DNA from: Escherichia coli
GTDB lineage: Bacteria; Pseudomonadota; Gammaproteobacteria; Enterobacterales; Enterobacteriaceae
Direction: 5' to 3' (one strand)
DNA: 64,000 bases
Assembly: GCF_013315695.1 (NCBI RefSeq)
Contig: NZ_CP054353.1
Shown here: in pieces, positions 60,039 through 63,228 of the stretch
How positions within the stretch are numbered: the first letter of the stretch is position 1
Layout of the letters: every line of letters starts with the position of its first letter
Translations under genes and position numbers: made by a program
Notes under the pieces: model-generated
Database searches by the model: none
What the model was told of the DNA's origin: nothing
What the model saw: the letters and a program-made list of their open reading frames with translations, nothing else

Positions 60039-60118
60039 CCCCGCACCATGATGCAAGCTGCATCCAGGTAGCCGCAGAGGCCGCTTGCATGATGATGTTT
60101 AAAGCCCAGGAGATAAAC

Positions 60119-61684
60119 ATGCTCGACACAAATATGAAAACTCAACTCAAGGCTTACCTTGAGAAATTGACCAAGCCTGTTGAGTTAATTGCCACGCTGG
60201 ATGACAGCGCTAAATCGGCAGAAATCAAGGAACTGTTGGCTGAAATCGCAGAACTGTCAGACAAAGTCACCTTTAAAGAAGATAACAGCTTGCCGGTGCG
60301 TAAGCCGTCTTTCCTGATCACTAACCCAGGTTCCAACCAGGGGCCACGTTTTGCAGGATCCCCGCTGGGCCACGAGTTCACCTCGCTGGTACTGGCGTTG
60401 CTGTGGACCGGTGGTCATCCGTCGAAAGAAGCGCAGTCACTGCTGGAGCAGATTCGCCATATTGACGGTGATTTTGAATTCGAAACCTATTACTCGCTCT
60501 CTTGCCACAACTGCCCGGACGTGGTGCAGGCGCTGAACCTGATGAGCGTACTGAACCCGCGCATCAAGCACACTGCAATTGACGGCGGCACCTTCCAGAA
60601 CGAAATCACCGATCGCAACGTGATGGGCGTTCCGGCAGTGTTCGTAAACGGGAAAGAGTTTGGTCAGGGCCGCATGACGTTGACTGAAATCGTTGCCAAA
60701 ATTGATACTGGTGCGGAAAAACGTGCGGCAGAAGAGCTGAACAAGCGTGATGCTTATGACGTATTAATCGTTGGTTCCGGCCCGGCGGGTGCAGCGGCAG
60801 CAATTTACTCCGCACGTAAAGGCATCCGTACCGGTCTGATGGGCGAACGTTTTGGTGGTCAGATCCTCGATACCGTTGATATCGAAAACTACATTTCTGT
60901 ACCGAAGACCGAAGGCCAGAAACTGGCAGGTGCGCTGAAAGTTCATGTTGATGAATACGACGTTGATGTGATCGACAGTCAGAGCGCGAGCAAACTGATC
61001 CCGGCAGCGGTTGAAGGCGGCCTGCATCAGATTGAAACAGCTTCTGGCGCGGTACTGAAAGCACGCAGCATTATCGTGGCGACCGGTGCAAAATGGCGCA
61101 ACATGAACGTTCCTGGCGAAGATCAGTATCGCACCAAAGGCGTGACCTACTGCCCGCACTGCGACGGCCCGCTGTTTAAAGGCAAACGCGTAGCGGTTAT
61201 CGGCGGCGGTAACTCCGGCGTGGAAGCGGCAATTGACCTGGCGGGTATCGTTGAGCACGTAACGCTGCTGGAATTTGCGCCAGAAATGAAAGCCGACCAG
61301 GTTCTGCAGGACAAACTGCGCAGCCTGAAAAACGTCGACATTATTCTGAATGCGCAAACCACGGAAGTGAAAGGCGACGGTAGCAAAGTCGTAGGTCTGG
61401 AATATCGCGATCGTGTCAGCGGCGATATTCACAACATCGAACTGGCCGGTATTTTCGTCCAGATTGGTCTGCTGCCGAACACCAACTGGCTGGAAGGCGC
61501 AGTCGAACGTAACCGCATGGGTGAGATTATCATTGATGCGAAATGTGAAACCAACGTCAAAGGCGTGTTCGCAGCGGGTGACTGTACGACGGTTCCTTAC
61601 AAGCAGATCATCATCGCCACTGGCGAAGGTGCCAAAGCCTCTCTGAGTGCTTTTGACTACCTGATTCGCACCAAAACTGCATAA
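60119..61684 (+). CDS. ahpF: Alkyl hydroperoxide reductase flavoprotein subunit AhpF
   Basis: 521 aa from [17 protein letters not shown]. CxxC motifs (CHNCPD; CPHCDGP), FAD/NAD-binding GSGPAG and GGGNSG. Confidence 0.95.
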
Positions 61685-61804: not shown

Positions 61805-62233
61805 TTAACGCACAACCAGCACCGGCAAATTGGCGTGGCGGATCACGCTCGAGGCGTTAGAACCCAACAGATGAGTTGAAATCGATGGGTTACGCGAACC
61901 AATCACTACTACATCTGCATCAAGTTCTTTCGCTAACTCGTTAACTTCATCCCGCACACTACCAAAACGGACATGTTGCTTAATGCGGGAAGGATCGATG
62001 GTGAAGTGGCTGACCATCGTTTGCAGACGTTCTTCTGCTTCATGTTGCAGATGCTCTTCAAAACGACGTACATCAGCGGCAAAACGGTGCAGGCTCAGGC
62101 TGGCTGACCCCGGTAGTACGTGAAGTAGATGAATAACTCCGTCATCCTGGGCGAGGAATTCAGCGTGGCGAACCGCTTTGTCGCTCAATTCCATTTCGAA
62201 AACATCCACTGGCATGATGATTGTTTTGTACAT
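61805..62233 (-). CDS. uspG: Universal stress protein UspG
   Basis: 142 aa from [21 protein letters not shown]... Confidence 0.9.
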
Positions 62234-62356
62234 AAGCATTCTCTCCTTGTTTTTGCATGTATACATAACAGCACATTATTGGTTATGAATCTATGATTTG
62301 CGAGGCTGATTTGATCTGAATTTGCTATTGAGCTGGAAAATAAATAAAACCAGGCG

Positions 62357-62446
62357 CTACCAGCGTTGTTCAAGGTATAGCACTGCAGCAACAATAATTG
62401 CGGCTATGAATATATAAAATGCAGTGATACCGAGAGCTTCGCTCAT
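62357..62446 (-). CDS. Candidate 29-aa small hydrophobic protein (hypothetical)
   Basis: ATG-initiated ORF encoding MSEALGITAFYIFIAAIIVAAVLYLEQRW (single predicted TM helix), upstream of and co-oriented with uspG. No strong Shine-Dalgarno. Unverified. Confidence 0.25.
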   Translation of the reverse strand: MSEALGITAFYIFIAAIIVAAVLYLEQRW

Positions 62447-62588
62447 ATGAGGTTCCGCAGATGAATAACCAGTTCAGATTAGAATGCTGCGCTTAAGAGC
62501 AAAATGATAAATCTGGTTGATATTTGAGCGGAAAGAGGATGCGAGTGCATCCTCTGGGCAAAGCGAGTTATCGCTTGTGCAGATGGGA

Positions 62589-62999
62589 TTAAAGCAGGTA
62601 ATCGCCAGCAGCTTCTGGCTGGTATTCGAGTTCCAGCACTTCAAGGTGGGTTGCAACGCCGCCTGGAAGTTCCCAGTGAATGGAATCGCCAACGCGCAGC
62701 CCCAGCAGTGCGGCACCTACCGGAGCCATAACGGAAAGCTGAGTATTGCTGTCGGTCATTTTTGCCGGATACACCAGCGTGCGCACACGCACTTCGCCAT
62801 CGCTAAGATTGCGGAATTTAACCCGGCTGTTCATTGTCACCACGTCGTGTGGCATCTCTTCTGGCGAACACATTTGGGCGCGATCCAACTCTGCGTTTAA
62901 CGCGTCGGCGATTGGCAAACCAGCATAGGCGGGTTGCTCCAGCAGAATATCGATGCGTTCGGCATCCAGGTCGTTAATGATGATAGTTGGTCTGGACAT
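62589..62999 (-). CDS. rnk: Regulator of nucleoside diphosphate kinase Rnk (GreA/GreB-like)
   Basis: 136 aa, [43 protein letters not shown]... Confidence 0.9.
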
Positions 63000-63044: not shown

Positions 63045-63082
63045 CCCAAAAGAAAACCCTCACCGTCAGGCGGCGAGGGTTT
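63045..63082 (-). terminator. Terminator hairpin downstream of rna
   Basis: AAAACCCTCACCG-tcagg-CGGCGAGGGTTT, with a U-rich run following on the minus strand. Confidence 0.45.
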
Positions 63083-63228
63083 AACGCACATGATGATACT
63101 GACTGTTGCTCACTCTTTGAAGTGATTTGCGTCACATTCAGGGAATTCCTCAATGTAGCGCATTATGTATAAATCTTAATCGTCATGGTTTATGGAAGAC
63201 GAATTAGCGTGTTTTGTAAATCAGAGGA

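Follow-up and report, generated by a model that had tools for sequence, protein, structure and literature searches.

We consider it very probable that two old, mutually exclusive haplotypes exist for the interval between uspG and rnk, of which the 64,000-nucleotide stretch of Escherichia coli DNA analyzed here (the window) carries one, that these haplotypes differ by replacement of a whole segment, and that the 29-codon reading frame within the interval is the gene yldA. The feature is ordinary and already known, comprising an annotated gene and routine accessory-genome variation in ybdR. The main value of the analysis is a correction: an open reading frame (ORF) that seemed novel is already annotated and has experimental validation in its K-12 allele. 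New here are only the anatomy of the haplotypes, including a different uspG promoter region in one-third of E. coli genomes, and a resemblance of the YldA protein to YoaI.

Two arrangements of the uspG–rnk interval

The layout of the locus is summarized in Table 1. A sequence-only reading of this DNA had stated that ybdR, placed by it between uspG and rnk in K-12, is absent from the window, and our comparison bears this out: no match to YbdR was detected by tblastn in the 355-bp gap, and the gap holds no ORF > 80 aa. The K-12-type genomes do hold ybdR between uspG and rnk, as had been claimed, and with ybdR present there the spacer of K-12 is not a short one. Regarding the gene starts, the RefSeq UspG protein begins with MYKTII, and the mechanical ORF extends to 62266. 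The mechanical ORF of ahpF starts 30 nt (10 codons; 60089–60118, plus strand) before the RefSeq start (MLDTNMK, at 60119), which is an ORF-calling artefact.

Table 1. Coordinates of genes, haplotype boundaries, and candidate signals around the uspG–rnk interval of the window.
Feature	Position	Strand	Remarks
ahpF	ends 61684	+	
uspG (universal stress protein G)	61805–62233	-	left flank of variable segment
uspG–rnk gap	62234–62588		355 bp
Left haplotype boundary (about 62251)	62234–62251	-	last 18 nt upstream of uspG start, still alignable with K-12; RBS region AAGGAGAGAATGCTT
yldA–uspG spacer, haplotype-specific	62252–62356	-	holds the window form of the uspG promoter region
yldA, window-class allele	62357–62446	-	RefSeq WP_001287361.1; NF041476 match
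Candidate Shine-Dalgarno-like GCGGAA	62453–62458	-	purine-rich, 7–12 nt upstream of yldA ATG; putative function
Candidate -10 hexamer TAATCT, putative yldA promoter	62476–62481	-	no call by consensus scan
Right haplotype boundary	62528	.	98–99% K-12 identity resumes exactly here, just before the hairpin on the plus strand
rnk 3' hairpin	62534–62555	-	AGAGGATGC-ACTC-GCATCCTCT; 9-bp stem, 4-nt loop, then only TTT
rnk (regulator of nucleoside diphosphate kinase)	62589–62999	-	right flank of variable segment
rna	from 63229	-	

In 5426 complete E. coli genomes, the segment of the window was found in 1817 and the K-12 segment with ybdR in 3605 (5422 in sum). The window haplotype, which represents about one-third of the complete genomes, includes the named strains ST131, UPEC 536, and NRG 857C. 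The K-12 haplotype, which represents about two-thirds, includes K-12, the BL21-derived C41, O157:H7, O111, O121, and O103. Our statements on phylogroups concern only strains with recognizable names. The window haplotype runs in the order rnk, hairpin, yldA, and uspG on one strand without ybdR, and the K-12 haplotype has rnk, hairpin, and yldA, followed by a convergent ybdR and then by a different uspG promoter region. A rare variant occurs in E. coli HS-02 (L084 2961–3238), whose locus is of the window type, has a 278-bp spacer, and carries no yldA annotation.

The junctions were located by alignment of the window with K-12, as the sequence-only reading had suggested. Identity was 97–100% through ahpF and 90–97% within uspG; homology ends at 62251 and resumes at 62528. 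Between these boundaries there are 276 bp in the window and 1611 bp in K-12, of which only the coding sequence of yldA can be aligned, and only weakly (54% identity in DNA and 52% in protein). Alignment also fails between the window spacer (yldA to uspG) and the K-12 uspG–ybdR intergenic region (L002 2390–2592), which are 53% identical over the 90 nt upstream of uspG.

The divergence extends into uspG, whose coding sequence differs from that of K-12 by 6.8%, compared with roughly 1–2% in ahpF, rnk, and rna. The K-12 uspG is a mosaic, in which the first codons are of the Salmonella/Citrobacter type and nt 291–342 match another Escherichia species. The region upstream of uspG falls into two sequence families, which track neither genus boundaries nor ybdR status. 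The family seen in the window is common to other Escherichia and resembles the C. freundii group, and the K-12 family resembles Salmonella, C. sedlakii, and Enterobacter. About one-third of E. coli genomes, the major extraintestinal pathogenic (ExPEC) lineages among them, have a non-homologous promoter region at uspG, and the regulation described in K-12 may therefore not transfer to these genomes. Judging from sequence, the regulation of uspG may differ between E. coli lineages.

Age and history of the two haplotypes

The sequence comparisons indicate that both haplotypes are old, and that the absence of ybdR is a common variant and not a fresh deletion. The arrangement of the window also occurs in E. 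albertii, in Escherichia sp. MOD1-EC7003, and in the approximately 95%-identical “E. coli” SCPM-O-B-8794. In these three Escherichia, YldA is identical to that of the window or one residue off, and the uspG upstream region is 89–94% identical. Conversely, ybdR is found at the same site in Salmonella, C. sedlakii, Intestinirhabdus, Enterobacter (many), Leclercia, and Silvania. The DNA identity of K-12 ybdR is 79.5% to Salmonella and C. sedlakii and 75–77% to Enterobacter, and the identity of rnk in the same comparisons is 82% (Salmonella and C. sedlakii) and approximately 74% (Enterobacter). Since ybdR occupies the same locus in other genera and has diverged like the core genes, it is not a K-12-specific acquisition, and the suggestion in the sequence-only reading that ybdR was acquired in K-12 is too narrow.

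The states of the interval were counted over 77 complete species loci. Neither ybdR nor yldA was present in 34 loci, yldA only in 21, both genes in 12, and ybdR only in 10. All four states occur within the Enterobacter–Lelliottia group, and three of them within Citrobacter. Based on these patterns, we infer that the interval is an old dimorphic segment, exchanged by homologous recombination through conserved flanks. The pattern of divergence suggests that the uspG coding sequence and the invariant hairpin next to rnk are the likely anchors of this recombination between lineages.

Two histories of the dimorphism have to be weighed. It is quite plausible, if somewhat short of probable, that the ybdR-less type is ancestral in Escherichia and that the K-12-type segment entered the A/B1/E side by homologous recombination from a relative that had kept ybdR. 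E. albertii, Escherichia sp. MOD1-EC7003, and SCPM-O-B-8794 are all of the window type. Furthermore, the uspG promoter region and first codons (nt 6, 9, and 36) of K-12 match Salmonella, C. sedlakii, and Enterobacter and not the other Escherichia; the K-12 YldA allele is closest to the alleles of C. koseri, C. amalonaticus, and C. sedlakii; and the mosaic structure and interhaplotype divergence of uspG described above are in agreement with such an entry. However, K-12 ybdR is no closer than the core genes to any sampled genus (79.5% vs. 82% for rnk), so it points to no donor, and outside these first codons the K-12 uspG falls among the Escherichia sequences. The window type is shared by three other Escherichia species in our sampling, which for the E. 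coli phylogroups covers strains recognizable by name; for this reason, we lean slightly toward the K-12 type as the later arrival in E. coli.

The reverse history, which is possible but which we would not expect, makes ybdR and the K-12-type segment a vertical inheritance from the shared ancestor of Escherichia, Salmonella, and Enterobacter, with the window type as an old loss or replacement that recombined among Escherichia and into the B2 side. The presence of ybdR at the same locus in the six genera or species listed above, with divergence that tracks the core genes, speaks for this order of events. In uspG nt 291–342, the window equals Escherichia sp. MOD1 and K-12 equals SCPM, which shows exchange between species in both haplotypes. 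The same history nevertheless presupposes that in three or more other Escherichia species the K-12 type was replaced by the window type, and 55 of the 77 complete species loci, including most basal genera, are without ybdR.

The sequence-only reading had also offered a clean deletion, that is, a lineage-specific loss of ybdR from a K-12-like ancestor with the K-12-type flanks joined; although ybdR is absent and uspG and rnk are intact in K-12 order, this is extremely unlikely and is contradicted because the flanks are not collinear with the reference up to a single breakpoint, the sequence from position -18 of uspG to the hairpin cannot be aligned with the K-12 flanks and has another uspG promoter region, YldA shares only 52% of its residues with the K-12 protein, and the arrangement is common to 1817 genomes and recurs with an identical YldA protein in E. 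albertii and two further Escherichia species. A true recent deletion, found for comparison in E. coli HH97 (L083 3560–3904), instead keeps a 192-bp ybdR pseudogene remnant within K-12-type flanks. The yldA gene of HH97 is annotated at 141 nt. Remnants of ybdR were also sought in ybdR-less spacers by global alignment of four pairs (the window and K-12, two E. asburiae, Citrobacter HRGM and C. sedlakii, and two Lelliottia), which gave only scattered matches of 3–10 nt that we regard as noise.

yldA and the signals around it

The 29-codon ATG ORF in the gap (product MSEALGITAFYIFIAAIIVAAVLYLEQRW) had been read from the sequence as a plausible single-pass small membrane protein. That description was right, and the ORF is a genuine gene; it had, however, been treated as an unannotated curiosity, and it is the named gene yldA, a known conserved gene, also present in K-12, for a predicted single-pass small membrane protein. 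RefSeq annotates the same ORF in this haplotype as “yldA: small membrane protein YldA” (WP_001287361.1, in the best-matching E. coli genome, with 99.9% identity). The window YldA matches the NCBIfam equivalog NF041476 with 59 bits (cutoff 45; E = 3.2e-16) over residues 1–29 of the 29-position model. Against Pfam PF23689 (YldA-like), it scores 22.9 bits (E = 9e-5), below the gathering threshold of 27, vs. 73.6 bits for the K-12 YldA. The PF23689 model appears to be tuned to K-12-class alleles, and this shortfall contradicts neither the synteny nor the NCBIfam result. As a consequence of the shortfall, Pfam-based annotation would miss yldA in about one-third of E. coli genomes, and NCBIfam catches it.

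In K-12, rnk and ybdR flank yldA (product MAEAFYILIGFLIMAAIIVMAVLYLENHS), and ybdR converges on it with its stop codon 3 bp away. Of the 36 small proteins that VanOrsdel et al. (2018; PMC6001520, Table 1) detected on immunoblots after chromosomal SPA tagging, one is the K-12 YldA. The convergent transcriptional overlap of ybdR and yldA has been listed (PMC12288877), as has yldA among fluoride-induced genes (PMC10100675).

To survey the conservation of yldA, the rnk locus was collected from the genomes of 80 Enterobacteriaceae species. The check proposed in the sequence-only reading, conservation of the small ORF across the family, gave a positive answer: the YldA ORF occurs in 36 of the 80 loci and has exactly 29 codons every time. 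In 34 of these 36 loci, the distance from the rnk stop to its start is 128–150 nt, with exceptions at 233 and 313 nt; the window has 142 nt and K-12 has 137 nt. All 34 distinct YldA sequences, which include the window and K-12 alleles and come from at least 10 genera, are 29 aa long, with invariant M1, E3, A21, V22, L25, and E26 and the C terminus AVLYLE(R/Q)(H/R)W. The window and E. albertii genes differ at 7 nucleotides, all of them synonymous, and the median dN/dS was 0.22 over 488 sequence pairs. The other two frames contain stop codons in 27–33 of the 36 sequences. The length of 29 codons alone is not significant, and the conservation exceeds chance. These sequence data indicate that yldA is under purifying selection. 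Two genomes labelled Citrobacter amalonaticus differ in YldA class (MTEAFGITAVYFLIAALLVAAVIYLEDRW in L014, of the window class, and MNETVSILLGFFIMAAIIVGAVLYLENHW in L018, of the K-12 class), and the dimorphism of YldA alleles is therefore not confined to Escherichia.

That the ORF is no functional protein gene, being either a chance ORF or a uORF whose translation regulates uspG, is very unlikely. In the window haplotype it does share the strand of uspG, at a distance of 123 nt upstream, with a weak Shine-Dalgarno sequence, and the consensus scan called no promoter; but its amino acid sequence, length, and C-terminal motif are conserved across genera with the low dN/dS given above, it is equally conserved where the convergent ybdR separates it from uspG, and the K-12 protein accumulates to detectable levels.

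Between rnk and yldA lies a hairpin, whose position just 3' of rnk had been recognized from the sequence and proved real, with coordinates that were off by one base. The 8-bp stem (GAGGATGC/GCATCCTC) occupies 62535–62542 and 62547–62554 and extends to 9 bp at the outer positions in Table 1. Its RNA fold has an energy of -20.1 kcal/mol (z = -4.9), and none of 200 shuffles was as stable. The structure has the G+C-rich stem-loop of a Rho-independent terminator, and its tail (TTTCCGCT) falls short of a U run of at least 5 T in 8; it was not called by the terminator scan. Since the tail lacks a U run, termination would be a putative role, and read-through into yldA is plausible. The hairpin is probably a weak terminator or a stabilizer of the 3' end of the rnk mRNA, probably marks that end, and may allow transcription into yldA. 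The exact stems were found in 53 of the 80 species loci, and closely similar stems, among them the compensatory pair GAGGATGT/ACATCCTC, occur in most of the others; nearly all loci have the 3' arm CATCCTCTTT. Such invariance is unusual for a terminator, and the variable segment has its right boundary at this same hairpin. The hairpin may have a sequence-specific function in addition to termination.

No Rfam family covers the spacer or the hairpin, and a match to snoZ223 (27 bits vs. a gathering score of 45) was spurious. A 23-codon ORF (MHSHPLSAQISTRFIILLLSAAF; 62479–62550, minus strand), whose ATG lies within a hairpin arm, was rejected as a by-product of the conserved hairpin and is not a gene; ORFs from the equivalent ATG in some other species are variable in length and sequence.

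Consensus scans of the spacer called neither a promoter nor a terminator. The candidate Shine-Dalgarno-like site upstream of yldA follows the column pattern G(C/T)GG(G/A)(G/A) across the aligned genera. In the candidate -10 hexamer, approximately 30 nt upstream of the yldA ATG, all 20 aligned genera have the same base at position 2 (A, 62480) and at position 6 (T, 62476). An invariant TCA.C block lies approximately 38 nt upstream of this hexamer, at about 62515–62520 on the minus strand. Taken together, the hexamer and the block may represent a weak promoter and a regulator-binding site. In the window, the 5' UTR of yldA could form a putative long-range UUCCGC/GCGGAA pairing that would cover the Shine-Dalgarno sequence (z = -3.1); K-12 and the other genera are without the same partner, and we make no claim for this pairing. 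Two further candidates were discarded. The region after yldA folds no better than its shuffles (z = 0.25) and no intrinsic terminator was called there by the scan. Inverted repeats flanking yldA (62314–62335/62458–62479, 77% complementary), considered as a cassette boundary or as pairing between the 5' and 3' UTRs, are attributed to chance, with a duplex energy of z = -1.5 in the window and pairing that is not conserved in the 35 other loci.

Transcription of yldA probably either continues from rnk through the weak hairpin or begins at a weak promoter of its own approximately 30 nt upstream, and translation would start from a weak Shine-Dalgarno sequence. Upstream of rnk, the known cis-regulatory Enterobacteria rnk leader (Rfam RF01771) was found at 63045–63153 on the minus strand (120.7 bits, full-length model), and it would control yldA as well in the case of read-through from rnk.

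Resemblance to YoaI and comparison with known systems

YldA sequences were also compared with the NCBIfam family NF041475 (YoaI), in which they score 21–30 bits (E = 4e-7 to 2.5e-4), and the next-best family among 18950 has an E value near 0.2. Because these scores lie below the equivalog cutoff of 45, YldA is not a YoaI orthologue or family member. In the reverse direction, YoaI gave no match to NF041476 at E ≤ 0.01. When E. coli YoaI was scored with a profile built from the 34 YldA sequences, it obtained 18.9 bits, a value reached by none of 20000 full shuffles and by 3 of 20000 shuffles limited to the membrane core. The YoaI residues S26, V27, and E31, which are reported as invariant, align with the invariant A21, V22, and E26 of YldA. 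In YoaI, E31 in the predicted cytoplasmic tail is needed for binding and activating EnvZ (PMC11429745). By these sequence measures, YldA looks like a distant paralogue of YoaI, and the resemblance, with the EnvZ-binding Glu kept, is one small new lead.

YldA is probably an inner-membrane protein in N-out, C-in orientation and, by analogy with YoaI, would probably modulate a larger membrane protein, such as a sensor kinase, via the invariant juxtamembrane Glu26. Two deep YldA classes recur in Escherichia and Citrobacter, and each goes together with its own uspG promoter variant and with ybdR being present or absent. A broader proposal, which we put forward as speculative and rather unlikely, is that YldA is a diverged YoaI paralogue that tunes a sensor kinase or another inner-membrane protein via Glu26 on the cytoplasmic side, and that the YldA classes, the uspG promoter variants, and the status of ybdR form a trans-species polymorphism that is maintained or repeatedly exchanged. 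If this were true, such a polymorphism could make the stress wiring at this locus differ between B2-type and K-12-type E. coli.

The closest known counterpart of the window YldA is the K-12 protein. Both are 29 aa long, share the position and orientation approximately 140 nt past the rnk stop, and have the six invariant residues M1, E3, A21, V22, L25, and E26 in common. They differ in that the window allele is only 52% identical in protein and 54% in DNA, and in their neighborhood, since K-12 yldA abuts the convergent ybdR whereas window yldA precedes uspG on the same strand; the SPA detection applies to the K-12 allele only.

With YoaI, a 34-aa inner-membrane protein that binds and activates the sensor kinase EnvZ (Vellappan et al., 2025), YldA shares a predicted single membrane helix flanked on both sides by acidic residues. 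YldA residues 3–29 align with YoaI 8–34, and V27, E31, and R32 of YoaI fall on V22, E26, and R27 of YldA. The similarity lies above composition-matched and core-shuffled controls, yet both proteins are short hydrophobic helices. In contrast to YoaI, YldA is five residues shorter at the N terminus, and the two genes occupy separate loci and coexist in E. coli.

As a locus, the uspG–rnk interval resembles ordinary single-gene presence/absence polymorphisms of the E. coli accessory genome, which are exchanged when the core genes beside them undergo homologous recombination, in that two exclusive alleles occupy one core locus, their boundaries lie in conserved flanks, and divergence is raised in an adjacent core gene, which here is uspG. 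Unlike ordinary single-gene polymorphisms, however, the two alleles of this interval differ also in the uspG promoter region and in the yldA allele, and both allele classes recur in other genera.
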